A stretch of 64,000 nucleotides of DNA, from the sequence record NZ_CP085281.1; one strand, written 5' to 3'. Of this stretch, positions 1,343 through 41,512 are shown piece after piece. Position numbers and translations under genes: made by a program. Under the pieces are notes generated by a model, which made no database searches, had not been told where the DNA came from, and saw nothing but the letters and a program-made list of their open reading frames with translations. The DNA is from a plasmid. The first letter of the stretch is position 1, and each line of letters opens with the position of its first letter.

Positions 1343-4300
1343 TCAGTCGCCCAGAGTGTCGTCGTCGCTGTAACGGATACCCGACCAGGCGCTCTGAACT
1401 CGGCCCTTCCGCGCGAAGCCGGGCTCGATGTATCGGGCCCGCCCCGGGATCCCGAAGTTCTCGAACTTGTCGTCGCCGATCTGGCCGTCGAACTTGTTCC
1501 CCGACAGCATCACCGTCGGGACGGCGTCGCCGAGCATTCGCCGCAGCACAGGGTCTCTGTTGATCGCCATGAACAGCTCTTCGGCTGCGCGGGCGATCAC
1601 GAAGTGCATACCGCGGGCCAGCGGCTCGTGGGCCATGGTGTCGTGCAGCTTGAAGAACGCGGGCTGCTCACCCATGGTTCGGGGGTTGGCGAACAGGTGG
1701 TAGTCGTCGACGACGAAGAAGATCTCCGGGCCGGTCCACCACGACCTGGCTGCACGCGTCTCGGCGTCGACGTTGGGCGGCAGGTCACGCTGATCGATCC
1801 TGAAGCGCTCCCACAGCTTCATCACCGATTCCCGCAGCTCGTCGTCGTTGGTGACGTAGGCGAACAGGTTCTTCTCGCTGATCTTGCCCAGGTGCCGGCG
1901 CCGGGGGTCGATGAAGATGACCGCCGCCTCGTCCAGGCCGCCGGGGAACCGACGCGTAATGCTGTCGTACACCGCCCCGATGGCCTCGCTCTTGCCCGAT
2001 TTGGCGTTGCCGGCGATGAGCAGGTGCGGTTCGCGCCACATCTCGGCGTAGGCCGGGGTGAGACGCTCCTCCTGAATACCGAAGGCGATGCGCAAGCGCC
2101 GCCGCGGGTCCCATCGTCCTTCGCGCTCGATCGCCTTCTCGTCGGCCTCCTTGACCATGACCGCGAGCTGCTCGTAGGTCAGCGACGTCGGCAGGGTCCG
2201 CAGGCGTTCGGCGGAGCTGGCGGCGAACTGCTGGGCGATTTGGCCCACCAGGGCGGTCATGCCTTCGTTGGTGGTGCTCGGGTCGTAGATGCCGTCGATG
2301 CGGGGCAGGGCAACCAGACCCTGGAGTTCGCTTCCCTTCGCCAAGGCGTGCCCGGGCGCGTTGCGGCGCTTCTTGGCCAAGGCGTTGTCGATGCGCGAGA
2401 ACTCCGTATCGGAGTGCAGCTCGATGATGCTGTTCATGTGCGGTTCGATGTCGCGCATTTCCACGACACGGGAGGTGGACAGCACCAGGTGCACGCCGTA
2501 GTTGAGGGCACCCACGATGAGCGATCCGACCTCGCTACCGCGGTACTGCAGGACCTGCCCTTCGCCCACGGCCGCATCCCACCCGTCAATCATGATGTAG
2601 ACGTCGCCGTAGCGGTCCTCGTTGAGCAGCGGATAGTCGGGGTTGGTGCGCAACCGCCGGTAGTCGGCCATGGTGCTGATCTTGTGATCGCGGAAGAGCC
2701 GTTCCCGGTCGGTGATCATGGTGCGGATCTGCAGGAGCATCCGGTTGATGGCGTCGGGCTCGGCGCGGGTGGCAACGCCGCCAACGTGCGGGAGATCGGC
2801 CAAGGGGCCCAGGCCGCCGCCGGCGTAGTCCACCAGGTACATCTGCACCTGCTCGGGGGTGTTGTGCAACGCCAGCGAGCACGCCAGAGTCTTGATCGCC
2901 GTGGACTTGCCCTTCTGCGCGCCGCCGATGATCAAGACGTTCTGATCGGTGGTGTCGACCGTCCAGACGGGCTGGGCATGCTTGATCGGATCGTCGAACA
3001 GCCCCATCGGTACCTTGAGCTTGGGTAGCGCAGTGTTGGCGGGCACCGCCCAGTTCCTCAACGCGGGCTCGGTCTGATCGAGGGTCTTGACCTCCAGCGG
3101 TGGCAGCCACATCCGGTACGGCGGCGGGAAGTCCGCCGAGCGCAGACGGTCGACCACGGTGGTGAAGATGGTCGGGGCGTTCTCGAGTTCCTCTTCGGTG
3201 TGTTCCAGTTCGCTGACCACCTCGACCGAATCGTCGGCGGTCTTGGGCAGCGGCGCCTCGATCGCCGTGAACGCCTGCGGGCCTACGAAACCACCTTCAT
3301 CGGAGCGGGTTTGGGCACGCTCGACGATGGCCTCCGAGGCCGGCGGGAAGTACGCCGCACCGGTGAAGCCGGCGTAGAACTGCGTTAGCTCACCGACCCG
3401 GTCACCGGCACTTGGGAGCAGGATGCCGTGCCCGGGGGTGCCCGGCAGGCGGTAGGCGGCATCGGAGCTGTCCAGCAGGGCCCGCGATTCCTGCGGAGTT
3501 TGGGTCTTCAGGCCGATCTTGTAGCCGATGTTGGACTCCAGCCCGCTGGTGCGGCCCGAGATGTCGAGGTTCTGCGAGGCGAACAGCAGATAGATGCCCA
3601 GCGAGCGGCCGACGCGGCCGATGCGCTTGAACAGCGGGCCGAAGTCGGGGTGCGCGGCGAGCAGCTCGGCGAACTCGTCGATGATCACGAACAGCGACGG
3701 CAGCGGAGGCAGGTCGACACCACGTTCACGCAGCTGCTCGTAGTCGCGAATGTCCTTGACGTCGTAGCGGTTACTCAGCTCATCGGCACCGCGCAGAACC
3801 GCGAACCGGCGGGCGATCTCGCCGTCGATCATCTCCGCCATACGAGACACCAGGTGAGCTTCTTGCTCCATGTTGGTAATGACCGCCGTCACGTGCGGCA
3901 GATCGCCCATGCCCAGGAACGTCGGGCCGCCCTTGAAGTCCACCAGTAGCAAGTTGAGCATGTCCGGCGAATGCGAGACGCACGCATTGATCACCAAGTT
4001 GCGCAGGAACTCCGACTTACCCGACCCGGTGGTGCCCAGCAGCTGCCCATGCGGCCCGGTACCGCCGTCGGCGGCCTGCTTGATGTCCAAATCGAGCCGG
4101 TCACCGTTGGACAGGAACCCAATGGGGATGCGCAGCCGGCGCTTGTCGCCGTAGCGGCTGATCGCACTCCAGATTTCGATCGGATCCAGCGCACCCGGAT
4201 CCCGCACCCTCATCAGGGTCTGCCAATCACGGCCGCGCTCGGACTGCTTGGCTTGGCGTCCAAGGCTGGTCAGCGAGGCCACCTCGTATTTGGCCAGCTG

Positions 4301-5521
4301 CCGCGCGGTCGTGCGCGCATCGGTCAGCGACACCTGGTCGGCCACAGCGACTTTGGTGGGTTCAGCCAGCGGCTTGTCGGCTTCAGTGCGCCACACCGTG
4401 CGGTCAGCGTCGCATCGCAGCACGATGCCTTCACTGGAAGTCAGGGCGTTGTCCGGCGGATTGACCATCAGCCAGGTCACCGCCGCTCTCGGCGCGATGA
4501 CCGAGTCGATCAGCTTGTCGGTCACCGTCGAGTCGACGACCACCAGGACGTGGCGGTACTTGTCATTGGTGAATTCGACGTGGGGATCGAAGTTCAGCGT
4601 GAAGTCGATGATCTTGGCGGGATCATCGTCATCCTCGCCGCCAACCCCGGCCGTCAGCGTCGACCAGTCCGAGTACATCATTCGCGCGCTGCCGAGTCGG
4701 TCGAGCTTGAGCGGATGCTGGGTGTGGGGCAGCCATTTCATCCACGACCATTGCGGGCCGTCGGGATCGTCGGTGAGCACGACCATGGCCAGGTTGTCTG
4801 GGCCGTGGGTGACCGCGGCGTGCAGCAGCATCGCGCGCAGCATGCCCAGCGCCACCTCGCGCTCACCAGAGAACCCGATGATCGGGAAGCGGGCAGTCGC
4901 CAGCGCCAACGGCATCGACGACACGGTGGAGTGGTGTCGCAGGAAGCGGACGGTCTGGACCCAGCCGACCGGCTCCAGGAACTCCCCCGGAGGGGCTTCG
5001 GGGGCCACGATCCGCGCCGCCAACTCCACCTCACCGAGCCCGTAGCGCAGCGCGGTGTATGCGTCGTTGGTGGGGGTGACTTCCCACATGCGTTCGGTCC
5101 CAATGAGACTGGGCAGGATGACTGGGTCCGGAAAGGTGTGCTGGAGTCCTTCGTGCATGCTCAGGCCGCGGTCGAACACCTTCTCGCGGGTGACGCCCAG
5201 GCCGCGGGTTTGCGCCTTGCGATCGGCCAGCAGTTGGGCCCGTGAGGTACCGCCGCCGCTTTGGCCCGACATCATGCCACCCATGCTGGCGATGATCATC
5301 AGCGGGAACAGGACCATCATGGGGTTGAAGCGCCCCGAGCGCAGCATCAGCGCGACCATGCCGGCTACTGCCACCAGCATGAACAGCGGCATGCCGATCG
5401 TTTTCAGCTTGGATGCCGGCTCGCCTTCCTCGATTTCCTTGGGCGGCGGCACGGCAACCTCGTCACGGGAGATCCGCGGCGGCGCAACCGGTGTGAACGG
5501 TCTGTTGAAGCTGATACGCAC
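1343..5521 (-). CDS. eccC: ESX type VII secretion FtsK/SpoIIIE-family ATPase EccC (fused EccCa/Cb form, 1392 aa)
   Basis: 1392-aa ORF with an N-terminal TM region and three P-loop FtsK-like ATPase domains (GTTGSGKSE, GGAQKGKST, GNAKSGKSE). A GTG start overlaps the eccB stop. Confidence 0.9.
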   Translation of the reverse strand: MRISFNRPFTPVAPPRISRDEVAVPPPKEIEEGEPASKLKTIGMPLFMLVAVAGMVALMLRSGRFNPMMVLFPLMIIASMGGMMSGQSGGGTSRAQLLADRKAQTRGLGVTREKVFDRGLSMHEGLQHTFPDPVILPSLIGTERMWEVTPTNDAYTALRYGLGEVELAARIVAPEAPPGEFLEPVGWVQTVRFLRHHSTVSSMPLALATARFPIIGFSGEREVALGMLRAMLLHAAVTHGPDNLAMVVLTDDPDGPQWSWMKWLPHTQHPLKLDRLGSARMMYSDWSTLTAGVGGEDDDDPAKIIDFTLNFDPHVEFTNDKYRHVLVVVDSTVTDKLIDSVIAPRAAVTWLMVNPPDNALTSSEGIVLRCDADRTVWRTEADKPLAEPTKVAVADQVSLTDARTTARQLAKYEVASLTSLGRQAKQSERGRDWQTLMRVRDPGALDPIEIWSAISRYGDKRRLRIPIGFLSNGDRLDLDIKQAADGGTGPHGQLLGTTGSGKSEFLRNLVINACVSHSPDMLNLLLVDFKGGPTFLGMGDLPHVTAVITNMEQEAHLVSRMAEMIDGEIARRFAVLRGADELSNRYDVKDIRDYEQLRERGVDLPPLPSLFVIIDEFAELLAAHPDFGPLFKRIGRVGRSLGIYLLFASQNLDISGRTSGLESNIGYKIGLKTQTPQESRALLDSSDAAYRLPGTPGHGILLPSAGDRVGELTQFYAGFTGAAYFPPASEAIVERAQTRSDEGGFVGPQAFTAIEAPLPKTADDSVEVVSELEHTEEELENAPTIFTTVVDRLRSADFPPPYRMWLPPLEVKTLDQTEPALRNWAVPANTALPKLKVPMGLFDDPIKHAQPVWTVDTTDQNVLIIGGAQKGKSTAIKTLACSLALHNTPEQVQMYLVDYAGGGLGPLADLPHVGGVATRAEPDAINRMLLQIRTMITDRERLFRDHKISTMADYRRLRTNPDYPLLNEDRYGDVYIMIDGWDAAVGEGQVLQYRGSEVGSLIVGALNYGVHLVLSTSRVVEMRDIEPHMNSIIELHSDTEFSRIDNALAKKRRNAPGHALAKGSELQGLVALPRIDGIYDPSTTNEGMTALVGQIAQQFAASSAERLRTLPTSLTYEQLAVMVKEADEKAIEREGRWDPRRRLRIAFGIQEERLTPAYAEMWREPHLLIAGNAKSGKSEAIGAVYDSITRRFPGGLDEAAVIFIDPRRRHLGKISEKNLFAYVTNDDELRESVMKLWERFRIDQRDLPPNVDAETRAARSWWTGPEIFFVVDDYHLFANPRTMGEQPAFFKLHDTMAHEPLARGMHFVIARAAEELFMAINRDPVLRRMLGDAVPTVMLSGNKFDGQIGDDKFENFGIPGRARYIEPGFARKGRVQSAWSGIRYSDDDTLGD

Positions 5522-5522
5522 C

Positions 5523-7106
5523 CTACTTCACTTCCTTCTTGTCCAGGCCGGCGACGATCGGGTTAGGTGGCATACCGTCGTGGCGGATGAGCGCGTCCTT
5601 CTGCGACAGCGTCGGGCCCGGGGCGAACAGTGAGACCACCACCCACGGAGCGGGTACCGGATAGTGCAGTTTCAGCGCGGTCAGGGTGACGTCCCCGGAT
5701 TCCCTGTCGGAGGTGTCCAGCCCGAACCGCACACCCGTGTCGGCGATCCAGAAGTAGGACTCACGCAGCCGTGAATCCGTTGCCGCACTGGTCACTTGGA
5801 CGAACCGACCGGTTGTCGATGGCATGTACACCTGGTCGGCGGTCATGCCCTCCGACGATGGCGCGGAGACCATCGGCACCAACGCCTTGACCTGCTGCGG
5901 TGTGAGCGGCAGGGTGCGCCCGGTGATGACTTCGGTGCGGGAGGTGGGGTCGTCTCCGTAGTGCGACCACGACCAGCAGGTGACCGGCTCGTTGTCGGCG
6001 TCGACCAGCTGCACCGCGTCCTGCGGGTAGAACGACACCGCCAGCTGCGTGGACTTCGGGAACGCGGCCAATGCGTCGGGCCCGACCTCGATGGGGGCGG
6101 TGCTGACTTGGGGATTGGCTGCCCGGATCATCGTCGCCGCGGTCAGGCTCACTTGCTGCACACCGTCGGGCAGCGTGGCGTAGTAGGTCTTCTGACCAGC
6201 CAAGTCACGCGCGGTCAAGATGGACCCCACCGTCAGCGGCTTGTCCCCGGCGAACGCCGGGCGGTCACCAACACCGGCGATGGCTGGGGCCACCAGTGGC
6301 GGTTCGGCCGGGATCGCGTTGAACAGGCCCTGCGAGATCGGCAGCACCAGATCGCTGGCCTTGAGTCCGAGCGCATCAGCGACGATGGGGTCGGTGATGT
6401 TGACCGTCGAGCGCACCACCACCCCGTCGGGTCGCGAGTAGATCAGCCAGGTGCGGTTGTCGTAACCCACCAGCCGCGCCTGGTTGCCACCCATCGTCGC
6501 GGTGTCGGCGCCCTTGGTGAGCGGGCCGCCGATCGCGGTGGTGGTGACCGGGGATCGCGCCGTGGTCGGCAAACCCGAAACCGGATCCAGCGGCACCGCG
6601 GCACCGGTCATCGTGGTGTCGCACACTGTCCAGATCGACGACGAATCCTGCACGTCACGAATATCGTTGGGGGCGCCGGGAATTCCAACAAGAGAGCCGC
6701 GCGGGTACTTGTCGATCTCGGCGGCACTGGCTTTCACCGGATTGTCTGGTTGGCCGACGATCAGCCGCGCGGAGGTCAGGTTGGTCACTGGATCGAGGCG
6801 GTCACCGACACGGATGTAGAGCGCCCCGGTGTCCTTGTCGGCGACGATCTTGGCGTCCTTGACCTGACCGGCCGGGGAGAACAGACCCCACACCACCGCG
6901 CCGATGCACACCACGATCCCGAGTGCGATACCCAGCACCAGGGGTGAAGCTTGCTGACGCTGAGGGTCGTCGATCATGCGGGTGTCGCGGCGGACCAGAG
7001 CATGCTGCAGGCGGCGGTAGAGGAATCGCCACCCGGTGACCTGATACTTCGCCGTGAGCCGGAAGCCACGGCGGCGACGCTGCTCGGGCCCTTCCAGTTC
7101 AGCCAC
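5523..7106 (-). CDS. eccB: ESX membrane component EccB
   Basis: 527 aa. The N-terminus (RLTAKYQVTGWRFLYRRLQHALVRRDTRMIDDP) followed by a single TM then a large periplasmic-type domain matches the EccB family. It lies between eccA and eccC. Confidence 0.85.
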   Translation of the reverse strand: MAELEGPEQRRRRGFRLTAKYQVTGWRFLYRRLQHALVRRDTRMIDDPQRQQASPLVLGIALGIVVCIGAVVWGLFSPAGQVKDAKIVADKDTGALYIRVGDRLDPVTNLTSARLIVGQPDNPVKASAAEIDKYPRGSLVGIPGAPNDIRDVQDSSSIWTVCDTTMTGAAVPLDPVSGLPTTARSPVTTTAIGGPLTKGADTATMGGNQARLVGYDNRTWLIYSRPDGVVVRSTVNITDPIVADALGLKASDLVLPISQGLFNAIPAEPPLVAPAIAGVGDRPAFAGDKPLTVGSILTARDLAGQKTYYATLPDGVQQVSLTAATMIRAANPQVSTAPIEVGPDALAAFPKSTQLAVSFYPQDAVQLVDADNEPVTCWSWSHYGDDPTSRTEVITGRTLPLTPQQVKALVPMVSAPSSEGMTADQVYMPSTTGRFVQVTSAATDSRLRESYFWIADTGVRFGLDTSDRESGDVTLTALKLHYPVPAPWVVVSLFAPGPTLSQKDALIRHDGMPPNPIVAGLDKKEVK

Positions 7107-7120
7107 AGCTGCTCTCCCGA

Positions 7121-8977
7121 CTACTCATGAAATGGAACCCCTTGTGTGGCGCAGACTTCGCGGAATGCCTCGGCGACGTCGCTGTCCTCGATCGTGACGA
7201 GCGCTTCCTTGACCGACAGATCGACGTCGGTGCTGGTGTTGAGCCGGTAATCACGGACCTCGGTGGCCTTCTCGGTGACGTTGCGGATGAAGCGCGCGTT
7301 GCCGGCCTTGTCGATTCCCGACACCACACGTGGGTTACCGCTGGAGTCGACGTCATCGACCTGCATGGCGGCCAGGATCTTCAGCTGCCGCAGCAATAGA
7401 TCCTGCGCGGCCGTCGAGTAAAGCGAATTCTCCGAACTGGCCATCAGATCGGCGATCTGCACCAGGTCCTCGGGGGTGTAGGACTCGAAACGGATCTTGG
7501 ACGTAAATCGTGAGGCCAAGCCCTCGTTCATCGTGAGGAACCGGTCGATATCCGCCTCATAGCCGGCGATCACCGTCACTAGTTTCTTGTTCGGATCCTC
7601 GGTCTTGCGCTCGTTCTCCAGCCGGGCCAGCAGCGTATCCACGGCCTCCTGGCCGTAGGCATCTCCATCGGAGTAGCCCCGCTGATACAGCGAATAGGCC
7701 TCATCAATGAACAGCAGCCCACCCAGCGCCTTATCGATGACGGCGTTGGTCTTCTGCGCCGTCTTGCCCAGGTACGTGTCGACCAACTGGGGCCGGGAGG
7801 CCTCCACGACCTCGGGCCGGGCGATCACGCCGAGCCCGAACAACAACTGGGCCAGCACGCGCGCCATCGTGGTCTTACCGGTGCCCGGAGGGCCGATGAA
7901 GATGTAGGCCGCGCCGACGTCCTTTTTGGCGATGCCCATCTCGGCACGCCTCTGGTCCATCACCGCCTTCGATTCCAGGCGACGGATCTGATCCTTGACC
8001 GCGTTCATGCCGATCTGCTTGTCCAGCAGCGCCATTGCCTCAGCACGCACGGTCTCGCGCCGCTGCTCTCGCGCCTCAGTCTCCAGCGCCGCGGCCGAGG
8101 TACCCGATTCTGGATCCCACACATCGGTCCTGGTGGCCAGCGAGGATGCGGTGACGATCTCGATCGTCTTCTCCGGATCGTCGATCGCGGCCTGCACCTC
8201 GGGCAGATTCATCCAGGCCTGCAGCTCCTTGAACGCCTGCATGGCCTCATCGCGCTGGCCCTGCGCGCGCAACGCGTAGCCCCGCCCCAAAACCAGCTTG
8301 GCGTGGACCTCATTGGGCAAACCACCGCTGGCCAAACCACTTTCGGCGTACCGCTGCGCTTCGGCGGGGTTGCCGGTACCGACCAGCGCCCACACCTTCC
8401 ACACCAGCATGCCGGCGTTGAGCAGCTTGACGAAGTCGGGATTGTCCTGCGAGCGCCACTGTTGCCTGCCTTCGAAGCTGAGCACATCGGGCCAGCGCCG
8501 CGCCAAGCCGAGCAGCCCCAGCCGCACATAGTCGAGCAGGTCCGAATCCAGCGTCGACATGTTCGGTTGACGGGCTTCTCGAGTGATGACCTCGTCGGCC
8601 TTGGCCAGCTGCGGCGGGTGCGCTTCGGCCAATGCGGCGGCATAGGCGATCGCCACGTGCATGCGGGTGTGGGTCGGCATGCCCAGCGCGAACGATCCCA
8701 GCGTCATCGACGTCATGACCTTCAAGTCCGCGACGGTCATCTGTGCGGTCCTGAGCGCGGCCCCCAGGTTGGTCACCGACCGGTAGGCGCCGGCGGCCAC
8801 ATCCAAGGACTTCTCCCCGGCAGCAAGCCGGCCCAACCAGGCATCGCACATGGTGGGGTCTGCCTCGACGGCCTGGCGGAACGCCTCACGCGCCTCATCG
8901 GCTTGACTGTTGCGCAGGTATCTCAACCCCAACACGAATACGTCGAGTGGTTTGGTTCCGACCCCTGTTGTCATCAC
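7121..8977 (-). CDS. eccA: ESX AAA+ ATPase EccA (TPR N-domain plus CbxX-type AAA C-domain)
   Basis: 618 aa. The C-terminal Walker A (IFIGPPGTGKTTMARVLAQLL) and LFIDEAYSL Walker B match the CbxX/EccA family. The N-terminus is TPR-like and helical. Confidence 0.85.
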   Translation of the reverse strand: MMTTGVGTKPLDVFVLGLRYLRNSQADEAREAFRQAVEADPTMCDAWLGRLAAGEKSLDVAAGAYRSVTNLGAALRTAQMTVADLKVMTSMTLGSFALGMPTHTRMHVAIAYAAALAEAHPPQLAKADEVITREARQPNMSTLDSDLLDYVRLGLLGLARRWPDVLSFEGRQQWRSQDNPDFVKLLNAGMLVWKVWALVGTGNPAEAQRYAESGLASGGLPNEVHAKLVLGRGYALRAQGQRDEAMQAFKELQAWMNLPEVQAAIDDPEKTIEIVTASSLATRTDVWDPESGTSAAALETEAREQRRETVRAEAMALLDKQIGMNAVKDQIRRLESKAVMDQRRAEMGIAKKDVGAAYIFIGPPGTGKTTMARVLAQLLFGLGVIARPEVVEASRPQLVDTYLGKTAQKTNAVIDKALGGLLFIDEAYSLYQRGYSDGDAYGQEAVDTLLARLENERKTEDPNKKLVTVIAGYEADIDRFLTMNEGLASRFTSKIRFESYTPEDLVQIADLMASSENSLYSTAAQDLLLRQLKILAAMQVDDVDSSGNPRVVSGIDKAGNARFIRNVTEKATEVRDYRLNTSTDVDLSVKEALVTIEDSDVAEAFREVCATQGVPFHE

Positions 8978-9029
8978 TTACCCCAGCCCTCTACGTCGCC
9001 ACGGACACCGCCACGTCCCAGACGTGCAG

Positions 9030-9800
9030 TTATGCGACGATCCTAGTCGGGCTCGACGGGGTCAACCGGTGCCGACCGTTGACGAAAATGCGGCCTCCAG
9101 CAACACCTGTGTAGTGGCTGGCCTTGGCCTCCTGCGCGCAGGATTCCATCAGCGGGCATCCCTTGCAGAGCATTTCGGCCTCAGCGCAAGCGACCCGGCA
9201 TTGGGTCTTGCTGCCGCCGGCGGCAAAGACGTGCTCGACCCGGTCCTCCCAGGCGGTGATCACCCCGATGTTGGTTCGGCAGTTCGGCACGTTCGCTGCC
9301 GCGGGGGCAGCGCCGGGCCGGCGGGCACCGGGCCCGCGACGGTTGGCCAGCGCCCGCGCCAGTCGAGCGGCCGCGCCGGCGTGCACGGGGCCCGCGGGAA
9401 CAGCACCAGCGGGCCGCGGCCGCGGCGGTGCTGCCGTCACAGCGGCGGCGGTAGCAGCTGCGCTGGCCTGTGCGCGCGCAAGCTGTTGCGCCCGTTCGGA
9501 TGTGGCTTTCTGGATCAGTGCGGTGGCGTCACTGCCGTTGGGGCCGGTTCCCGGCATCGGCACATCACCTAGGACCGCCGGGTCGATGTCCAGTGCCGCC
9601 ATGAACGGGGCCAGCATGCTCGGCGGGGCAGCCAGGACCGCGCTGGCGGTGTCGACCAGGCCGAGACCGTTGAGGTGGTCGACGATCTTGCGCCGCGCGA
9701 GGCGGCTCTGTCGACGGTTGCCGTTGGCGCGGGCGGCGGCCGGATAGCTGGTGCAGCTGGCGCAGCGACGGCGGGTTCCGTCCTTGAGGGATCGGCACAT
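9030..9800 (-). CDS. Fusion protein: N-terminal Cys domain shared with the 10821-12983 product, plus a C-terminal WhiB-like Fe-S motif
   Basis: The C-terminus (CRVACAEAEMLCKGCPLMESC ... GVAGG) matches the WhiB C-X2-C-X5-C plus GVWGG pattern. The start is trimmed to MCRSLKDG (ATG at 9798-9800), by analogy with the paralog start MCRSTQHG. Confidence 0.5.
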   Translation of the reverse strand: MCRSLKDGTRRRCASCTSYPAAARANGNRRQSRLARRKIVDHLNGLGLVDTASAVLAAPPSMLAPFMAALDIDPAVLGDVPMPGTGPNGSDATALIQKATSERAQQLARAQASAAATAAAVTAAPPRPRPAGAVPAGPVHAGAAARLARALANRRGPGARRPGAAPAAANVPNCRTNIGVITAWEDRVEHVFAAGGSKTQCRVACAEAEMLCKGCPLMESCAQEAKASHYTGVAGGRIFVNGRHRLTPSSPTRIVA

Positions 9801-10117
9801 CAGAAGGCCCCCGCAATCGGTTGGGCCGGAGTACGACGAAACATGGTTCCCCTTCCGGTGAAGGTGTCTTTGGCACGGCCAGACTAACCCAAATCCGGAA
9901 AGTTCACCACCCTTGGTAAGTTTTAAGTTGCCTCCCGACACCCTGCGTGTGCCCGTTCGCCCATGTCATAGCCGCTACCTAGGCGGCATTCGTAGTTTCT
10001 CCACGGACACCGGCGCCATGGGGGAAAGTGCAGTCTCGACCGGCGCGCCGCACCGACCGCCAACCCCGCGGCGGGCAGGATTCCAGCTACCACTCAACAC
10101 AGCGGAGATCAGAGCCG

Positions 10118-10501
10118 ATGAACGACGAACCGCACCGCAGCGACGAGGACGCCCCACCCACCGGTGCGCCCCACGACGACTGCACCGGCTTGCTCGAACA
10201 GCTGGCGGCGGCCTCACTGGTGGCCGAAGCCGAAGACCTCACCCGCGGCGTGCGCCACTTGTCGATCGCCACCGGCGACCCCGAAACCGAGGACGAGCTG
10301 GCCCGCATCAACACCCTCACCACCGCAGCGTGGACCTCACGGCCAGGGGCAGCCACGACGTCGATCCGCGGAGGCGGCGACTATCTGACCGTGCGCGTCG
10401 AGGGACCTGATGCAGAAAGGTTCGTCGACGACCTCGCCGAGCTTGCCCGGCAACTCAACCCCGGGTTCTGGCGCATCACACGCTCCGCGCACCCCTTCTG
10501 A
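10118..10501 (+). CDS. hypothetical acidic protein
   Basis: An internal ATG is preceded by GGAG, and the longer ORF shows a compositional shift after that point. No recognisable domain. Confidence 0.3.
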   Translation: MNDEPHRSDEDAPPTGAPHDDCTGLLEQLAAASLVAEAEDLTRGVRHLSIATGDPETEDELARINTLTTAAWTSRPGAATTSIRGGGDYLTVRVEGPDAERFVDDLAELARQLNPGFWRITRSAHPF

Positions 10502-10539
10502 GCAGCCCAGACGACACGTCCACCCGACACTCGGTCTGA

Positions 10540-10722
10540 TTAGTCGTCCACCGCGCGGACCGGCTCCCCGTTGATCAGGTCGTAGGCAGTGGAGCGGATT
10601 GTCACGATGTCGAGTTCGTCGAGGTCGGCCAGCCGGCCGATGGAATCGGCGATCGCCTCCGGGGTCATGCCCTCATCCAGTCGCTGTTGGATCTCGTCGA
10701 TCTGCGCTCTGGTCAACGCCAT
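10540..10722 (-). CDS. small (~60 aa) HTH-like protein, a paralog of 41271-41495
   Basis: MALTRAQIDEIQQRLDEGMTPEAIADSIGRLADLDELDIVTIRSTAYDLIN aligns with MLNILQRNVIRGYLDDGMSPEEIADYLGRVNDLGPLEVVTIRSAAYDMLN. Confidence 0.4.
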   Translation of the reverse strand: MALTRAQIDEIQQRLDEGMTPEAIADSIGRLADLDELDIVTIRSTAYDLINGEPVRAVDD

Positions 10723-10820
10723 GTCGGCCCCTTTCCCTGCCCACCCGCTGCCGGCTGACACCGGCACGGGGACATGCTATTGCCCCAGTTCAGCATGGTC
10801 GTCCGGCGGCACTATCCTCA

Positions 10821-12983
10821 TCAGCCGGCCTTCTTCCAGCCGCCGGCACCGGTGTCCTCGGCTTCAGCCACCAAATCTTCGCCGACCAGGTAGACCGTCG
10901 GCTTACCGGCGATGCCGTTGTGCTCGACGTGTACGCACCGCAGGTGCGAACCCATCGGCAGAATCACCTCGTCCTCACCGGAGAAGTTGGAGATGCTCTT
11001 GACCGGCAACCCCTCCCGGGTGCGCACGACCATGTAGTACGGCGGATGCCCGGCGAACGCCGAGGCCGTTGACTGCTTGGTGGTCGTGCTGGTCACCTTC
11101 CCTACTTCCATGCGAGCACCGACACTGAACACCGCGTCGATGTACTCCGCCGGCGTTCCCTTCCACCCGCTGGGCACCCTCGTCCCGCGCACCACCGTCA
11201 TCGGAGACATGTTCGGGTTGTTCTCGCGGAACTTGTCGAACGCCGACTCGATCCCGGAGACCACCGTCTTGATCGACCCCGAGGGCTTGGCACCGTCACG
11301 CCCGCAGATCGCCGCGTTGATCGCGGTGTAACTGCCGCCGGTGTACGTCGTCAACGCCGAACGCTCCTTGCTGTCGAGCGCCTTCTGCACGAACGCCGCA
11401 TTCGCCGCCGTCAGCTCACTGATGCTCGACGTCTGGACCCCCGGGCCGCTGGTGTTGAAGCCCCACGCCTTGAGGTTGCCCGCCCGCTGGCCGATCACCG
11501 CATAGTCCTCGGCGGTCTCTTTGCCCCACGCGCGGATGCCGCTGCGCCACAACGCTTTGTGCTTGTCCGCACCGAGGCTGTCGGGTGGGATTTTGTGGTC
11601 GAAGTGCGGGATGACCCCGCCACCACGGGTCAATGTGCCCAGCGCGCGCCGATGTGCCGCCGCGTAGGCCTCCTGGGCGGCCGCGGCTCCCTTGCCCGCC
11701 GCCAGGGCCTCGGCGCGGGCGGCCTCGCCGGCGGCCACGGCCGCCTTCTCCCGCACAAGCTTCTTGTGCCGCTTGGTCGCGTCGTAGATGTCGGCGCGCA
11801 CCGGTCCTGCGCCCACGGCCTCGACGAGCTTCTCGCGGGCCTCCCCCATCTTGTCGTCGATGAACTTCTGGTGCTGCTCGGCGTTCCAATGATGTTCTGC
11901 GGCTTGGCCTGCCAGCTGCAACAGCACCTGAGACTTGATGTGGTGGGCCTGAGCCTCGGTGTCGGTGGCGCCCTCGGCAAGTGGGGGCAGCTCGGCCATC
12001 ATGGGCATGCGGTTGGCCTTGTTGAGCGCCGCGGACTTCCCGCCGGCAGCGGCCACGCCGTGGTAAACCCCGTCGCGCTTCTGCAGGATGAGGAAGTCGC
12101 CGGATCCGCGGCGGTGGATCGCCGTCCCACCGTCGAGCAGACGCCCCTCGACTTCGACGGCCCCCGATCCGGTCTCCATCAGGAACTTGCCGGGGGTGTA
12201 GACGGAGGTGTCGCGCACCGCCCCGGCCAACAGCGCCGGCTGCGGCCCCGCATCCAGCGCCCCGGCAGCCTCGGCCGCCACCGACCGGTTCAACGACCGC
12301 GCCAACGCCTCGACGTCCTCGGCACTGAGGTTGGCGCAGTACGCGTCGCGCTCCTCTCCGGGCAGCGTGGTGGCCACCCCGTACTTCGCCGCGACCACGT
12401 CATCGGCTGCCATCGGGACGGCGAGCTTGGCCTGCTCATAGGCCGCCTTGGCCGCGTCGATCTCCTCACCGGCTTGCGCAAGCTGCGTGAGCTGCTCGCC
12501 CGTCAGCGAGTCCCCTTCGGCCGAGCCGAACTCCTTGACCAGCTTGCGGCGCCGCGCCTGGGCCCGCTGCACGGCCTTACGGCCGTCGTCGACGGCCTTC
12601 TCCGCCGCGGCGAGCGCCTCCTGCGCCTGCTCCAGAGCGTGCTCCTCCGGGGAGATCTGCGGGCCGGCCAGTGCGGCCTGCTCGGCCTTGGCCGCGGCGA
12701 TCAGCAGCCCCGCCGAGGGAGGGTTGGAGTGGGTACTGGGCATGGGGGTGTCACCGAGCACCGACTCCTCGATGCCCATCGCCTTCATGAATTCCGGTAG
12801 GACGCTCGGGGGTGCGGCCAGGATCGCCTTCGCGGTGGCGACCAGGCCTTGCTCGGTGAGGTGATCGACCACCTTCTTGCGGGCCAGCCGGCCCAGCCGC
12901 CGATTGCCGTTCGCCTTGGCCGCGGCGCCATAGCTTCCGCAGCCGGGGCAACGCCGGCCACCATGTTGGGTCGATCGGCACAC
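10821..12983 (-). CDS. Multidomain putative toxin: N-terminal Cys domain, Ala-rich coiled-coil, C-terminal mono-ADP-ribosyltransferase domain (R-S-E clade)
   Basis: The C-terminal ~170 aa carry YTGGSYTAINAAI (alpha-3 motif), a catalytic Arg (VVRGTRV), an STS-like motif (STTTKQS) and the ARTT loop FSGEDEVILPMGS. The loop parallels iota Ia FAGEYEMLLP and C3 GEYEVLL. The N-terminal 90 aa are paralogous to the N-terminus of 9030-9800. Confidence 0.7.
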   Translation of the reverse strand: MCRSTQHGGRRCPGCGSYGAAAKANGNRRLGRLARKKVVDHLTEQGLVATAKAILAAPPSVLPEFMKAMGIEESVLGDTPMPSTHSNPPSAGLLIAAAKAEQAALAGPQISPEEHALEQAQEALAAAEKAVDDGRKAVQRAQARRRKLVKEFGSAEGDSLTGEQLTQLAQAGEEIDAAKAAYEQAKLAVPMAADDVVAAKYGVATTLPGEERDAYCANLSAEDVEALARSLNRSVAAEAAGALDAGPQPALLAGAVRDTSVYTPGKFLMETGSGAVEVEGRLLDGGTAIHRRGSGDFLILQKRDGVYHGVAAAGGKSAALNKANRMPMMAELPPLAEGATDTEAQAHHIKSQVLLQLAGQAAEHHWNAEQHQKFIDDKMGEAREKLVEAVGAGPVRADIYDATKRHKKLVREKAAVAAGEAARAEALAAGKGAAAAQEAYAAAHRRALGTLTRGGGVIPHFDHKIPPDSLGADKHKALWRSGIRAWGKETAEDYAVIGQRAGNLKAWGFNTSGPGVQTSSISELTAANAAFVQKALDSKERSALTTYTGGSYTAINAAICGRDGAKPSGSIKTVVSGIESAFDKFRENNPNMSPMTVVRGTRVPSGWKGTPAEYIDAVFSVGARMEVGKVTSTTTKQSTASAFAGHPPYYMVVRTREGLPVKSISNFSGEDEVILPMGSHLRCVHVEHNGIAGKPTVYLVGEDLVAEAEDTGAGGWKKAG

Positions 12984-13254
12984 CGTGCGCCTCCTTCAGG
13001 TGTCTTTGGCAGGTACACCTATGAAGTACCGACGCACAGCGCCTTTTCCGTCACCTCATCTCAGAATTGACCCACAACACGCCTCCTAGCAGCGGCGATG
13101 CCACGTCCCCCCGGACTTGCGGGCGACGACGCACGCAAACGCCCCGCCCGGGGCCGGGCAAGCTTCTGTGAGCAGTCGCGATGGCGCGCCCTGCGCCGAC
13201 AGGCCGCCCATCCGGGCCGCTGTGGCTCTCTCGGAGCGAGGGACTTACCGCCGG

Positions 13255-14190
13255 TCAGCGAGCTGCGTCTGCCGCTTCGGCAATTTGCGTGGCGGCGTCG
13301 ATGTCGCTCCCGTGAGCACGGCGCGCCTGGCTGTGTCTCCACACGCTTTTGGCTCGTGCACCCGGCTTGAGTCCTGCGGCCTTGACCTCCACCCACTGCT
13401 CCGTGACCAGCCATAGAGCCTGGTCGCGGGCGTCGTCAAGATCGCGGAACAAGCGGTCGCCATCTCCGTTGTGCACCTCGACGAGGTCTTCCCAGTTGGG
13501 ACGCCGACCTTCATTGGCGGCAGTGAAACGACGGACTGCCGAGGCGACGCGCCGCCCCATCGAATTGGGCGACCGAACGACTGACGCAAAGTAGCTCGGC
13601 CCAGCACAGAGACTGCGCGTAGAGGTGTTGAACGCAAACCACCCGCGTTGGCGCCCGCTTCGAATCAGATCACGACGCAACGGCCGGTAGGTGCCCTGGA
13701 GGTCCCGGACGCCGAACTCGTTGAGAATCTGCTCGATCGGTGCGCTGCTGAAGAACTCGTTCCACGTCGGGCCTTGGGCATAGACCTGGTGGTATTCGTG
13801 GATCCAGGCCGCACCCAGCTTGCCGAAATGATCGATCTCCTCAACGGTCCACTGCCGCGCAGGTACGTGAGGACGGGGCGGGGCCGCAGCGCCGGCGGCT
13901 ACGGCTCGGCACGTCGGCACCTGCCCCTTCTTGAGTAGAGCGAGGATCATCTGACCGTCCGCCGACATCGGATCGGGCAGCACCAACGGATCCTGATCCG
14001 GCTTGGCAGGATTCAGCGCCCGCTCAAGCAAATCCCTGTTGGCATTTGTGCACTCGACGCCGAGGGCATCGAGAAACGCAGCGATCGCCTGCTTCGTCTC
14101 CACGGACCTGCCTCCTTCGCCCGGCGTGTGCCTCACATTAAGGCCGAATCGTCGCCGCGTAGCCGTACGCACCGCAAGCGGGTCCTCCAA
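13255..14190 (-). CDS. hypothetical protein
   Basis: Long ORF with no recognisable motif. The start may be an internal GTG. Confidence 0.4.
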   Translation of the reverse strand: MEDPLAVRTATRRRFGLNVRHTPGEGGRSVETKQAIAAFLDALGVECTNANRDLLERALNPAKPDQDPLVLPDPMSADGQMILALLKKGQVPTCRAVAAGAAAPPRPHVPARQWTVEEIDHFGKLGAAWIHEYHQVYAQGPTWNEFFSSAPIEQILNEFGVRDLQGTYRPLRRDLIRSGRQRGWFAFNTSTRSLCAGPSYFASVVRSPNSMGRRVASAVRRFTAANEGRRPNWEDLVEVHNGDGDRLFRDLDDARDQALWLVTEQWVEVKAAGLKPGARAKSVWRHSQARRAHGSDIDAATQIAEAADAAR

Positions 14191-14354
14191 CTAGCACTGA
14201 TCACCTCAGCTCACGGGTCACCGCAGGGCTGCTAGCAGCGGCGATGCCACGTCCCCATCGCGGCCGGTCAGGGCGGCGTCGACGACACCTCCAGCGACGG
14301 CCGCATAGCTGCTCACGCACCGCAGACCTTCTACCAGGCACGATGACACGTCCC

Positions 14355-17625: not shown

Positions 17626-18108
17626 CTACTTCACGTCGGTCACGACGATCGGGAGCCAGTTGCGCACCGACACCGACCATTTGCCCTCCTGGACGAGGTC
17701 GGCCAGCTCCTGGCACTGCTCGTCGGTGGTGACGTCCCAGCCTTGCCCGATCACATTGACCGGGCCGCGCACACCCGCACGCCAATCGAGCACGGAGTAC
17801 TCCAAGGCGCCGCGCCGCCGAAACGGCGCCTGTCGGGTGAGCACGACGACGTCCTGCCCGGCCACCGCCCGTATCGTCCACCACCCCCGCTCGGCGTCGA
17901 GCCTGACCCGCTGACCGACTGCCATGGCCACCGGCGTCATCGGCTCGACCTGGTAGTACCGGCGCTGCTGCGATCGTTCGGCATTGGTGAGCGTGTCCGT
18001 AGTGGTCATGACCGTGCCTCCTGAACTGTGGTGGATGCTCCTACCTGGTAAGTACCGCCGCGGGCGGGCGTTTCCGTCATTGCGGACGGATATTGATCCC
18101 AGGTCCAC
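17626..18108 (-). CDS. hypothetical protein
   Basis: ORF only. The likely start is the internal MTTTDTL. Confidence 0.3.
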   Translation of the reverse strand: MDLGSISVRNDGNARPRRYLPGRSIHHSSGGTVMTTTDTLTNAERSQQRRYYQVEPMTPVAMAVGQRVRLDAERGWWTIRAVAGQDVVVLTRQAPFRRRGALEYSVLDWRAGVRGPVNVIGQGWDVTTDEQCQELADLVQEGKWSVSVRNWLPIVVTDVK

Positions 18109-18592
18109 CCGTCCAGGACTCGCCCGGCGCGATGCTTGCCGACGCGGACAGCGATCGTGTCGCGGTCGAGTAGCACGGTGTTGGTGGTGCGCTCGCCCAC
18201 CTCCATCAGCCGCTCATGCCCGCCCCGCAGGGTGGTTGCCCCCGGCGCGGGCACGCGGATCACCGGCGAGCGCCGGCCTCCCAGGGGGTGGTCGTAGGCG
18301 CGCCCGAAGCGGAAGTCCTCGTCATCGGTGACCGCGACGGGCAGGTACTCACCGAATTGCTTGAAGTAGAACGCGATGCCTGCTTGCACGCATTCGTCGC
18401 GGATGCCGCGCACCCAGTCCGGATGCAGGGGGCGTGCCTGGGGGCCCGATTCGCCGCCGGCGATGACCCAGTGCAGCACCTCCCGCACGTTCAGACGTTG
18501 CCCGTCCCAGGTCGGATGATCTTGTGGTGGCGTCCATTTCCGCAGAGCCTGACGCAACGCGACGTATTCGAGCAACGGCTCCATCGACAGGT
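18006..18592 (-). pseudogene. Gp37/Gp68 (DUF5131) gene, C-terminal fragment
   Basis: YLSMEPLLEY ... WVIAGGESGPQARPLHPDWVRGIRDECVQAGIAFYFKQFG is the conserved C-terminal half of phage Gp37/Gp68. The N-terminal half lies at 26116-26703. Confidence 0.7.
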
Positions 18593-18638
18593 AGCTTCTC
18601 CGAACTTCCCGAGTCGGGCTCGGGACGATGTTCTGGGT

Positions 18639-18875
18639 TCACGTACGCCCCGGAGGTTCCTCCGTGTGCCGGGCACCAGGGAGCCCAAGTGTGACAATCT
18701 TCTGCATTCTCTGCAGCTTCTGCTCGGCTGCCGCAATACTAATTGCAAGCCCTTCTATTTCACCGAGCCATCCTTGTGCCTTCGCTTCTTTTGTGCGCTC
18801 TTGGAGATTGTCGATTATTTCGATCAGTCGACTCTGCTGGGCTGGGTCCGGCTGAAGCATCGCGCAGCGGATGCA
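18639..18875 (-). pseudogene. Displaced 3' end of element A tnpB (zinc-ribbon tail)
   Basis: ACIRCAMLQPDPAQQSRLIEIIDNLQERTKEAKAQGWLGEIEGL is homologous to the C-terminus of the intact paralog (ACVRCSLLRPDPAQRPRLEEIRSNLEDRIEEAKLHGWLGEVEGL). It continues the frame of 22653-24833. Confidence 0.6.
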
Positions 18876-18913
18876 AGCTTCTCTGAACTTAGCTGGGGCA
18901 CTTAGCGATCCGT

Positions 18914-22626: not shown

Positions 22627-22652
22627 GGCCGAAAGCTATCGGGGCCGGCGCA

Positions 22653-26056: not shown

Positions 26057-26115
26057 TTGGTCCTTCCGTGCGGCGAGAGAAGCCGACTCCAGTCGACCAG
26101 CCTCAGGCCCCTTCG

Positions 26116-26703
26116 CTAAGCCGACACACCGGTAGTTCGGTCAACATGTCGAACGGCGGCCGGAGTGTCCAGCAGCGCCGGGATCCGCCTGTCGGCCCAG
26201 TACTGACTCTCCACGCTGACACCCAGCCACACGTTCGGCAGAAACCCCTGCAGTTGCCCGTGATTGGGCCAGTACTGCTCGCGTGACGGCCGCTGCGCCA
26301 TGACGTGCTCACCGAAATCGGTGACCGCCGCCCAGAACCGAGCACTCCTGAGCAGGGAGCGCATCCGACCGTGCCGCTTGGTCAACACCTGAAAGGTGTG
26401 GGTGGCGCAGCTCTGCATCACCGCGAACACGTGCGCGATGTACTCGTCGGGCACCTTCTCGTGGAACAAGTCACCGGTGGAACACACGAACACCTTGCGC
26501 GGCGCCCGCCAACGCATCGGCTGATCGAGCCGCTCCGGCCACAACGTGACATCAAACCCGTTGGGCCACGCCTTGGTTCCCGCAAATCGGCGAGCATTCC
26601 TGGCGGCGTAGCAGTTGTCGCATCCCGGCGAGATTGGGGTGCACCCGGTGACCACCGGCCACGTCGAATTGGTCCATTCGATCTTGCTGCGAGCCCCCAT
26701 CAC
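26116..26703 (-). pseudogene. Gp37/Gp68 (DUF5131) gene, N-terminal fragment
   Basis: SKIEWTNSTWPVVTGCTPISPGCDNCYAARNARR is the hallmark N-terminus. The frame ends 8 codons into element A. Confidence 0.7.
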
Positions 26704-39520: not shown

Positions 39521-39742
39521 CGAGAAACACACATCCCGTCCAAAGTCCTTGCCGCAGCAGCCCACATCTGCAATGCGACAGATCTCTGTCAGGGTGTGCG
39601 CGGAGCCCCGTGGACCTTGTCCTGGTCGATTGCGACCGATCGATGTGGGCGATCAATCCACTGCCAGGAGTCGCGCCGCCGCGGCGACGGCGCTGGCCCT
39701 AATATACCGCCCTCTCCGGCGACCGAGGGTCGCGCGCGGGGC

Positions 39743-41495: not shown

Positions 41496-41512
41496 TTGGG
41501 TCTCGTCTCTCT

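Follow-up and report, generated by a model that had tools for sequence, protein, structure and literature searches.

What does a multidomain ADP-ribosyltransferase do on actinobacterial plasmids, and why does it share its N terminus with a WhiB-like protein encoded at the head of a type VII secretion locus? The question is raised by a 64,000-nt stretch of plasmid DNA (record NZ_CP085281.1), which is called the window here. Its minus strand encodes, in order of transcription, a 311-aa open reading frame (ORF), a 720-aa ADP-ribosyltransferase (ART), a 60-aa ORF, a 256-aa protein and the ESX-P genes eccA, eccB and eccC, and one ORF of the opposite strand lies before the 256-aa gene. The 256-aa protein joins the N-terminal domain of the ART (the N-module) to a WhiB-like (Wbl) domain and is referred to as N-Wbl. 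The DNA of the region is 85% identical to the Mycobacterium avium plasmid p1-JPH1, and the 720-aa protein has a 100% match at NCBI, an "ADP-ribosyltransferase (plasmid)" of M. avium subsp. hominissuis on a 215,734-bp contig. We tentatively favor the possibility that the two proteins are a cytoplasmic host-modifying enzyme and a sigma-A-directed regulator with a common targeting module; ESX secretion is unlikely.

The C terminus of the 720-aa protein is an intact R-S-ExE mono-ADP-ribosyltransferase domain. Pfam ADPrib_exo_Tox (PF03496) matches the protein with 40.6 bits (E = 2.2e-10, cut-off 23.4) and Pfam ART (PF01129) with 24.0 bits (cut-off 22.3); the Pfam ART matches span residues 528–687, and both families are matched by all 36 aligned homologues. 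In the same 36 sequences R599, T631/S632, E670 and E672 are invariant, and a hidden Markov model (HMM) alignment to ExoT places its RG, STS and EQE (ExE) motifs in register with the corresponding ART residues. By motif, the family is of the arginine type. The AlphaFold2 model of the protein has a mean predicted local distance difference test score (pLDDT) of 86.4 and a predicted template modeling score of 0.69, and its Foldseek matches are ExoS, Plx2A, C3, CDTa, VIP2, Tre1 and the Listeria pair of an ART and an ADP-ribosylglycohydrolase (ARH), at E = 1.5e-6 to 1.2e-4; for ExoS, Plx2A, C3, CDTa and VIP2 the probability is 1.00 and the target template modeling (TM) score 0.6–0.69. The PHROG family "Alt-like RNA polymerase ADP-ribosyltransferase" matches residues 525–603 (E = 4.6e-6). 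A first-pass annotation, made by a model from the sequence without database searches, had placed a mono-ADP-ribosyltransferase of the R-S-E clade at this C terminus, and the Pfam scores, the invariant residues and the fold matches to C3, VIP2 and CDTa bear it out. After the core, a conserved acidic helix closes the protein at about residues 700–712 (window 10824–10880, minus; ending EDLVAEAED), in which V700, E702 and A706 are invariant and DLV and E707 nearly so; it may loosely resemble the cofactor-binding C-terminal helix of ExoS/ExoT.

Conservation of the ART extends over all 720 aa. The homologues come from Mycobacterium, Mycolicibacterium, Rhodococcus, Prescottella, Nocardia, Aldersonia, Gordonia, Tomitella and Dietzia, are 43–92% identical to the window protein and give a mean column identity of 59%. 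According to the model and the alignment, a long helical hairpin at about residues 112–204 is followed by a five-strand beta domain (about 257–335), further helices and the segment 400–520. The beta domain has the invariant residues Y262, G280, R281, D284, T287, R291, F297 and L300, and its five predicted strands have a pLDDT of about 85–93. The segment 400–520 is very conserved, with the motifs GTPTRGGGVIPHFDHKIPP, RSGIRAWGKETADDY and AWGF; no part of this middle region has a Pfam or PDB sequence match. The linker of about 400 aa, proposed at first as Ala/Glu/Lys-rich coiled coil, is thus more than that, as this globular domain and this conserved segment lie there. Since the family has the same C terminus and is conserved end to end, the C terminus is not polymorphic within it. 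The polymorphic-toxin-like architecture of the first-pass annotation is thus absent inside the 720-aa family. Across the wider N-module set one N terminus does stand before varied ends (ART variants, kinase, M78, alarmone synthetase and Wbl), of which Wbl and M78 are not toxin domains.

No hydrophobic segment is present in either protein (highest Kyte-Doolittle value over 19 residues, 1.18 for the ART and 1.49 for N-Wbl), and the ART is taken to be soluble. Pfam, the 36-homologue alignment and hydropathy gave no WXG, LXG, PE or PPE domain, no conserved WxG or YxxxD/E motif, no signal peptide and no membrane segment in the ART, whose only invariant Trp residues are W507 and W607. Two full-length ART-family paralogues lie 4 kb apart in Nocardia tengchongensis (L004:14181–16307); they are 44% identical to the window protein and keep ExE as EHE, and a canonical 89-aa WhiB is encoded near them on the same contig. 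"ADP-ribosyltransferase" is already the NCBI label and the ART core is of a known kind, so to that extent the claim that the arrangement is not a described one falls. The other part of that claim stands: a literature search for the family (including pVAPN, pRAW and Rhodococcus plasmids), the N-module and the Wbl paralogue found no paper describing them, nor one describing the pairing of a small ORF with the ART, the alternation of ARH and N-Wbl, the modularity of the N-module or the multidomain architecture.

The N-module is shared by the two proteins from residue 1 of both, with 60 of 102 residues identical in BLASTP (59%, E = 1e-31), as the first-pass annotation had noticed. An assembly artefact was considered as the origin of the duplicated domain and rejected, because the copies are merely 59% identical and the same ordered pair recurs in about ten independent assemblies, namely p1-JPH1 and nine further mycobacterial loci of different species. 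The module consists of a Cys motif, MCRSx5-6RRCxxC, an Arg-rich helix and two to three short helices, and ends in PMP. In the ART model the helices are at 16–44, 48–56 and 59–69; C2, C12 and C15 of the Cys motif are modeled at a pLDDT of 55–62 and the following helices at about 90. Residues 1–45 contain 10–12 Lys plus Arg against 2 Asp plus Glu (10 basic residues in the ART), and distant members keep MCRSxxxGGRRCPxC and HNERRR. The residues kept there point to a metal site of C3H type with an Arg-rich helix behind it. The likely start in Rhodococcus is a GTG 10 codons upstream of MCRS. In some Wbl paralogues the helical part is tandemly repeated two to three times, and the Cys motif is missing in a few. 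The modules form two clades, with 57–73% identity between the ART type and the Wbl type, 82–99% within the former and 72–93% within the latter. ART and Wbl modules of the same locus show no preference for each other, and co-evolution or concerted evolution of the pairs was rejected; two clades with no cognate-pair signal indicate one old duplication. One paralogue, P0118, carries an ART-like patch.

A profile of the N-module was searched against 1.84 billion representative proteins, and the matches were classified with local HMMs and Pfam. The 80 matches begin nearly always at residue 1; three of them, the TPR proteins P0174, P0192 and P0196, are repeat-driven false positives. Besides the canonical order of N-module, middle part and ART in the window family, the module is joined to an unrelated middle part and an ART (P0158, P0161–P0164, P0167–P0169, P0173, P0178, P0182, P0190 and P0191), to a short ART (P0186 and P0199), to a Wbl domain with one to three copies of the helical part (P0120, P0130, P0137 and others), to a PI3_PI4/HipA-like kinase with DRHxxN and DHG motifs (P0198 with 29.0 bits against a cut-off of 27.1, and seven others below it), to Peptidase_M78 (P0177, 34.5 bits, cut-off 22) and, in several proteins including the 1667-aa P0193, to no recognizable domain. 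By eye, the middle of P0177 may resemble the N-terminal ssDNA-binding domain of ArdC. In three Rhodococcus loci a 268-aa protein starting MCRSDKEGGHRC is encoded about 9–10 kb downstream of the ART (L017:19701–20288, L020:19149–19955 and L027:13663–14131), and it joins a short form of the N-module, headed by the Cys motif, to a small alarmone synthetase domain (PDB 8vx3, E = 4.4e-15).

The contigs of six fusions outside the ART family and the Wbl group were read; their surroundings are conjugative or mobile, and three of the six lie in conjugative clusters. The M78 fusion follows genes for a ParA-like protein, a VirB4-like AAA_10 ATPase and a DUF87/HerA-type ATPase and precedes an N6_N4 methyltransferase gene. 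Two kinase fusions come directly after AAA_10, a large ORF and Peptidase_M23, one of these clusters also having an FtsK_SpoIIIE gene. The short 345-aa N-ART faces a homologous ARH (36% identity to the ARH of pVAPN), and P0193 is near an EccA-like AAA gene. The N-module is a modular N-terminal unit on plasmid-borne enzymes and regulators, newly recognized here, and the early observation of one N-domain on different effector ends extends to kinases, an M78 peptidase, other ARTs and an alarmone synthetase.

The C terminus of N-Wbl is, judged by motif and profile, a divergent WhiB-like Fe-S domain. Pfam Whib (PF02467) matches the window protein with 16.4–16.8 bits, below its cut-off of 23.6; all 28 homologues match it and all stay below the gathering cut-off, the best reaching 22.1 bits, and any other family has matches in at most four of the 28. 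A PDB profile search returned only WhiB4, WhiB3 and WhiB7. C174, C212, C215 and C221 are invariant in the 28 sequences in the pattern C-Xn-C-X2-C-X5-C, and the G[VI]WGG turn reads YTG[VI]AGGRIF in all of them, with Ala in place of Trp. The structures nearest to the predicted fold are those of WhiB7, WhiB1 and WhiB3 bound to sigma-A region 4. Several homologues carry the UniRef label "4Fe-4S Wbl-type domain-containing protein". The WhiB-type assignment made at first sight is upheld by the invariant Cys residues and the PDB profile matches, though the Pfam scores are sub-threshold. The gene stands 52–57 nt upstream of eccA in every mycobacterial locus (52 nt from stop to eccA in the window, about 56–57 nt in p1-JPH1 and M. 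rhodesiae) and has a conserved promoter-like (sigma-A-like) element of the TANNNT type and a coupled leader ORF. An upstream ORF (uORF) of 13–15 codons with the same ATG overlap as in the window was found in 10 of 10 other mycobacterial loci scanned; nine of the ten encode a similar peptide and M. rhodesiae a different one. The overlap suggests translational coupling or leader-peptide control. Its domain content and position make it most likely that N-Wbl binds sigma-A and regulates the genes for ESX-P and transfer.

The distribution of the N-module bears directly on the supposed ESX link. Among 72,556 plasmids searched by tblastn, 40 carry the N-domain: 26 from Rhodococcus, 12 from Prescottella equi (pVAPN type), one from Mycobacterium and one from Microbacterium, and nearly all the matches fall under genes annotated as ADP-ribosyltransferase. 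The same search of 50,697 phage records gave no match for the N-module or the ART region. EccB is encoded on 122 plasmids, none of them from Prescottella and only two from Rhodococcus, and one of the 82 EccB-bearing plasmids of Mycobacterium and Mycolicibacterium has the N-domain (p1-JPH1). Most of the carriers thus lack ESX. A link to the "high-conjugation" transposon site before p00530 of pRAW was considered and dropped, as pRAW has EccB and lacks the N-module.

Gene neighborhoods were compared in 22 genome loci, including 9 mycobacterial and 11 Nocardiaceae loci. The 9 mycobacterial loci, where the contig is long enough, run from DUF4031 to the ART, the small ORF, the opposite-strand ORF (not in all), N-Wbl, eccA and eccB, and the order from ART to eccA is the same in p1-JPH1 and M. 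rhodesiae. The 11 Nocardiaceae loci have a cutinase gene (mostly after ParA and DUF2637), the ART, the small ORF and an ARH. In the housekeeping backbone of pVAPN1571 the order is Rep, ParA, DUF2637, cutinase, HNH, ART, a 57-aa ORF, ARH and the MobF relaxase, with small ORF and ARH start overlapping by 4 nt. Nine of the 11 loci have an ARH (Pfam ADP_ribosyl_GH, E = 4.3e-37), which in Aldersonia is upstream on the other strand; of the two without it, one stops directly behind the small ORF. No locus of the 22 has both ARH and N-Wbl. All 9 mycobacterial loci lack ARH, and so does the window, where the best tblastn match has E = 1.3. Relatives are encoded in or beside conjugation loci, and in the window the ART abuts the ESX-P locus; no relaxase is among the window ORFs scanned. 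The survey gives an invariant core of the ART and a 57–61-aa ORF of helix-turn-helix (HTH) type, the ESX adjacency and the Wbl paralogue belonging to one mycobacterial lineage. The position directly upstream of eccA, stressed in the first-pass annotation, recurs in all nine mycobacterial loci and is not family-wide, and the ESX link drawn from it does not extend to most carriers, 38 of 40 being Rhodococcus or Prescottella.

The reading that we prefer, still tentatively, is that the 720-aa enzyme serves the plasmid inside bacterial cells in the way Alt serves phage T4. The enzyme, which we infer to be active, would ADP-ribosylate one or more cytoplasmic host proteins, with the transcription apparatus as the leading guess, and the adjacent ARH of Nocardiaceae plasmids would reverse or limit the modification. 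The N-module would be a portable targeting or adaptor unit that brings different domains to the same partner, and not an export signal for the medium. Candidates for this partner are nucleic acid, RNA polymerase and the transfer apparatus: the basic helix and Cys knuckle suggest nucleic acid, and the genomic company of the module suggests the transfer apparatus. In one mycobacterial ESX-P lineage the module would have been duplicated and fused to the Wbl domain, and N-Wbl, preceded by a sigma-A-like promoter of its own and by a leader ORF in probable translational coupling, would regulate the ESX-P and transfer genes. The strongest argument against an export device is the Wbl transcription-factor domain on the same module, which argues for cytoplasmic bacterial action. 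Kinases, alarmone synthetase and peptidase likewise act on bacterial cytoplasmic targets, which argues against export to the medium or to a eukaryotic host, and the tandem repeats of the helical part fit a binding module better than a leader signal. The recurrence of ARH pairing, independently, with the short 345-aa N-ART was also counted in favor.

Several observations weigh against this reading. The eccA adjacency in all nine mycobacterial loci may reflect a functional ESX-P link in that lineage. The lack of ARH in the window cuts both ways, since a harmless ART leaves the ARH of its relatives in need of another explanation and a harmful one would need an inhibitor on the window's plasmid. 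ART, HipA-like kinase and alarmone synthetase are classic growth-arrest toxin domains and fit a delivered toxin or a toxin-antitoxin system equally well. Finally, the N-module has no significant structural or family match (LisH_PAC1 appears sporadically, in 4 of 28 paralogues), so the term "targeting module" is an argument from architecture.

The same architecture can be read as a delivery device. As a recognition signal or an adaptor, the N-module could load the ART and its cousins onto the transfer machinery, of the type IV secretion system (T4SS) kind and coupled to ESX-P in these mycobacterial plasmids, so that they enter with the DNA and act in the recipient. On this account the module would be a new translocation adaptor of actinobacterial conjugation, with ART, kinases, alarmone synthetase, M78 and WhiB-like proteins as cargo, which we hold to be unlikely. 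In its favor are the position of the module nearly always at residue 1 before varied effector-type C termini, the kinase and M78 fusions in line after AAA_10/VirB4-like, M23, FtsK/HerA-type and ParA-like genes, and the ART as neighbor of the MobF relaxase in pVAPN and of eccA in mycobacteria. Against it, the signals known from T4SS substrates lie at the C terminus; a tandem duplication of the helical part, as in the Wbl paralogues, is unusual for a signal, and the Cys motif is missing from some of them. The motif is moreover not always terminal, the Rhodococcus start lying 10 codons before MCRS. Conjugation of pRAW-type plasmids requires both T4SS and ESX-P genes (PMC4173767), which favors delivery, yet pRAW itself lacks the N-module. 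Transfer of such effectors together with DNA has been proposed for polyvalent proteins (PMC5512222).

A plasmid addiction or abortive-infection system resembling DarT-DarG is less probable still. Here the ART would be the toxin, with ARH as the antitoxin, or in mycobacteria the product of the 60-aa or the opposite-strand ORF. The block of ART, small ORF and ARH is indeed tightly packed, with the 4-nt overlap of small ORF and ARH, and recurs in 9 of 11 Nocardiaceae loci and with the short ART; a predicted pairing in the ART leader involves the Shine-Dalgarno sequence and the start codon, and the sister fusions with HipA-like kinase and alarmone synthetase are known toxin folds. However, a four-domain protein of 720 aa conserved throughout is atypical for such a toxin, the ARH is missing from all mycobacterial loci, the small ORF is also found away from ARTs, no PADLOC defense-system model matches, and the Wbl and M78 fusions stay unexplained. 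The first-pass annotation had suggested a polymorphic ART toxin secreted by ESX-P or delivered by contact, its N-domain being the ESX targeting part and its neighbor a WhiB6-like regulator. This is improbable. It gains from the order of ART, small ORF, N-Wbl, eccA and eccB, invariant in long-enough mycobacterial loci, p1-JPH1 and M. rhodesiae, from the ART-ARH toxin-immunity pairs of other secretion systems among the structural neighbors (6drh and 8za7), and from the 1667-aa N-module protein near an EccA-like gene. Against it stand the taxonomic spread of the N-domain plasmids and the single carrier among the 82 mycobacterial EccB plasmids, an ART with no WXG, LXG, PE or PPE domain or conserved YxxxD/E and a non-polymorphic C terminus, the missing immunity-like ARH in the window, and the presence of the module on a transcription factor, which is necessarily bacterial-cytoplasmic. 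The distribution and the lack of any type VII secretion system (T7SS) substrate feature make it the weakest of the rivals.

Phages (T4 Alt) and secreted toxin-immunity pairs provide known examples of ADP-ribosylating enzymes on mobile elements; in actinobacterial plasmid biology such enzymes have no established role. The strict conservation of the ART family in plasmid backbones, including those of the Rhodococcus equi virulence plasmid pVAPN and of M. avium plasmids, implies a function that the plasmids need. The N-module provides a search handle for a set of enzymes and regulators on plasmids for which a common partner or route is probable, and finding the partner would explain the whole set together. 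N-Wbl is a candidate regulator for plasmid type VII and conjugation genes, and its uORF invites tests of translational control. Were the N-module a transfer signal, it would mark the first protein substrates and a recognizable signal for the hybrid T4SS/T7SS conjugation machinery, and would raise the question of what besides DNA this mycobacterial apparatus moves.

The features of the locus are collected in Table 1.

Table 1. Features of the ART/N-Wbl region in the window (HTH, helix-turn-helix; RBS, ribosome-binding site).
Feature	Position	Strand	Evidence or remark
Multidomain ART gene, 720 aa	10821–12983 (with stop)	minus	GTG start; GAAGGAGG RBS 6 nt upstream
N-module of ART, aa 1–95	12699–12983	minus	59% identity to N terminus of 256-aa protein, E = 1e-31
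Beta-rich middle domain of ART, aa ~257–335	11979–12215	minus	Invariant residues and five predicted strands
Helical/loop segment before ART core, aa 400–520	11424–11786	minus	Invariant columns R405 to F509
R-S-ExE mono-ADP-ribosyltransferase domain, aa 521–712	10848–11423	minus	Pfam, Foldseek, HMM alignment
ART catalytic codon R599	11187–11189	minus	
ART catalytic codon S632	11088–11090	minus	
ART catalytic codon E670	10974–10976	minus	
ART catalytic codon E672	10968–10970	minus	
60-aa HTH-like ORF (MALTRAQIDEIQ...), directly downstream of ART	10540–10722	minus	Conserved position; weak HTH matches
Opposite-strand ORF, 157 aa as listed	10028–10501	plus	Probably ~127 aa from internal ATG
N-Wbl chimera, 256 aa	9030–9800	minus	ATG at 9800; N-module 9516–9800; Wbl domain 9033–9299
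N-Wbl cysteine codon C174	9279–9281	minus	
N-Wbl cysteine codon C212	9165–9167	minus	
N-Wbl cysteine codon C215	9156–9158	minus	
N-Wbl cysteine codon C221	9138–9140	minus	
14-codon upstream ORF (MFRRTPAQPIAGAF)	9800–9844	minus	TGA overlaps N-Wbl ATG (cTGATG); preceded by GGAAGGGG
Promoter-like motif CGGAAA-N13-CGGTAC upstream of ART	13026–13050	minus	Motif scan
eccA	7121–8977	minus	Pfam T7SS_EccA1_N E = 1.3e-47 and AAA; first ESX-P gene after N-Wbl
eccB	5523–7106	minus	T7SS_ESX1_EccB E = 1.6e-155
eccC	1343–5521	minus	Named from annotation of syntenic plasmid p1-JPH1
311-aa ORF upstream of ART	13255–14190	minus	No homologue in the related loci compared first

The p1-JPH1 homologue of the ART (L001:16785–18947, minus) is called at 688 aa in RefSeq (WP_306453515.1), with a start inside the N-module. 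The conserved RBS GAAGGAGG and the GTG indicate the 720-aa form, so the RefSeq call clips the N-domain; several Rhodococcus entries of the family are likewise annotated with late or early starts. An Rfam scan of 8900–14300 gave no match. Against NCBIfam and PADLOC, the ART, N-Wbl and the opposite-strand ORF had no significant match, and the small ORF had only one of 12.9 bits, to JetC.

The family of the 60-aa ORF directly follows the ART in 20 of the 22 genome loci (in one exception the locus ends inside the ART) and also in L001–L005, and shows weak matches of HTH_7, HTH_38 and sigma-70 region 4 type. A paralogue with 55% identity is encoded at 41271–41501 (minus), directly upstream of a 378-aa gene (40116–41252, minus) whose product matches only phage family phrog_15934 of unassigned function; this second copy means that the small ORF is not exclusive to the ART. 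A 48-aa ORF beside the ARH in L032 was compared and is not homologous to it. The opposite-strand ORF is kept in p1-JPH1, where it is annotated as "hypothetical protein", in M. rhodesiae and in 8 of the 9 mycobacterial loci, is restricted to the mycobacterial arrangement, and has no significant family match in Pfam, NCBIfam, PADLOC or PHROG. In M. rhodesiae it is preceded by a 73-aa NikA-like ribbon-helix-helix gene (L005:13361–13582, minus; 25.4 bits, cut-off 27), which lies between the ART operon and N-Wbl and is absent from the window; it could mark an origin of transfer or a small divergent regulatory unit.

Upstream of the ART, the motif CGGAAA-N11-16-GGTAC occurs three times in the window against 0.09 expected, always on the minus strand (13026–13050, 18052–18076 and 63465–63489), before the ART, a 126-aa hypothetical gene (about 17629–17985) and a third unit. 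It is conserved in all mycobacterial ART leaders, and a covariance model of the ART leader also matches the leaders of the 126-aa gene in other plasmids. The motif may define a plasmid regulon under an alternative sigma factor. Folding of the ART leader is predicted to leave its Shine-Dalgarno sequence and start codon base-paired (z = −2.5, with weak covariation support). A structured leader, with CGGUAC pairing to the start region, was nevertheless rejected, as CGGAAA-N-CGGTAC also precedes genes that lack that start sequence and is better read as a promoter; the covariation counts rest on a model-fitted alignment and weak matches. The element GCCAAAGACACC stands in the leaders of both N-module genes (12999–13010 and 9863–9874, minus), as well as in p1-JPH1 and M. 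rhodesiae, which suggests that the ART leader was copied along with the module when N-Wbl arose.

Elsewhere in the window, a DUF5131 gene (phage Gp37/Gp68-like) is split into C- and N-terminal halves at 18006–18584 and 26116–26703 (minus). The insert of about 7.5 kb (about 18585–26115) has a lower G+C content, two paralogous pairs of large ORFs with a repeat spacing of 3547 nt and a XerD-like tyrosine recombinase (21373–22626), and is probably an integrated recombinase element. A WhiA homologue with all three WhiA Pfam domains (42149–43219, minus) is encoded on the same plasmid as the Wbl chimera, and a 406-aa FtsK/SpoIIIE-like gene is at 38345–39565. Further cargo, at 28483–29877 (minus), 34929–36458 (minus), 57474–58727 (plus) and 52221–53030 (plus), comprises a GNAT acetyltransferase fused to a P-loop kinase/zeta-toxin-like domain, two IS605-type TnpB and an IstB-like ATPase.

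How does this locus compare with known systems? The best sequence and structure matches of the ART are C3, ExoS/ExoT, Plx2A and the iota/CDTa/VIP2 group (PF03496), with R, STS and ExE in register. Exotoxins of the C3 and ExoS type are exported and act on eukaryotic proteins. Identity to them is only 15–22%, and in contrast to them the window ART has no export signal and its family is a backbone gene of soil and clinical actinomycete plasmids. The ART-ARH pairs Tre1-Tri1 of Serratia (6drh, E = 1.2e-4) and of Listeria monocytogenes (8za7_B, E = 6.1e-5, target TM 0.69) share the ART fold, and as in Tre1-Tri1 an ARH stands beside the ART in the Nocardiaceae relatives. The matched chains have 178–185 residues, whereas the window ART has 720 aa and no recognized secretion or trafficking domain; a small ORF separates ART and ARH in the relatives, and the window and all mycobacterial loci lack the ARH.

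Type VII polymorphic toxins (LXG/WXG100 and CpnT) resemble the N-module superfamily in their constant N terminus, their variable toxin-type C termini and, for some members, an immunity-like gene downstream. The N-module set differs from them as it has no WXG100, LXG, PE or PPE domain, is mostly found where there is no T7SS and includes non-toxin C termini (Wbl and M78). N-Wbl shares the C-Xn-C-X2-C-X5-C pattern with the Wbl regulators (WhiB6, WhiB7 and WhiB1), its predicted fold being closest to those of WhiB7, WhiB1 and WhiB3, and differs from them by its 165-aa N-terminal extension, the G[VI]AGG turn, the sub-cut-off Pfam score and the leader ORF of 13–15 codons. It heads an ESX locus, which recalls whiB6, the regulator beside ESX-1 that the first-pass annotation had named as a precedent.

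The T4 Alt enzyme (with ModA/ModB) is, like the window ART, an R-S-E ART of a mobile element, and modifies bacterial cytoplasmic proteins for the benefit of that element; the window ART has the PHROG Alt-like match. The window family differs in being carried by plasmids and not phages and in having the N-module, the middle domains and, in relatives, an ARH partner. Alt is also the model that has been invoked for ARTs of conjugative elements (PMC5512222). Polyvalent proteins are multidomain proteins of conjugation loci with ART and metallopeptidase domains, for which an action on the host during establishment has been proposed (Iyer, Burroughs, Anand, de Souza, Aravind, 2017; PMC5512222). Neither WhiB nor Rhodococcus occurs in that paper, and its ARTs are of the H-Y-D (Tox-ART-HYD2) clade (PMC5512222), whereas the window ART is of the R-S-E clade. 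The N-module fusions are encoded in loci of this kind, and polyvalent or early-phase effector proteins are the closest concept for the set of proteins described here.

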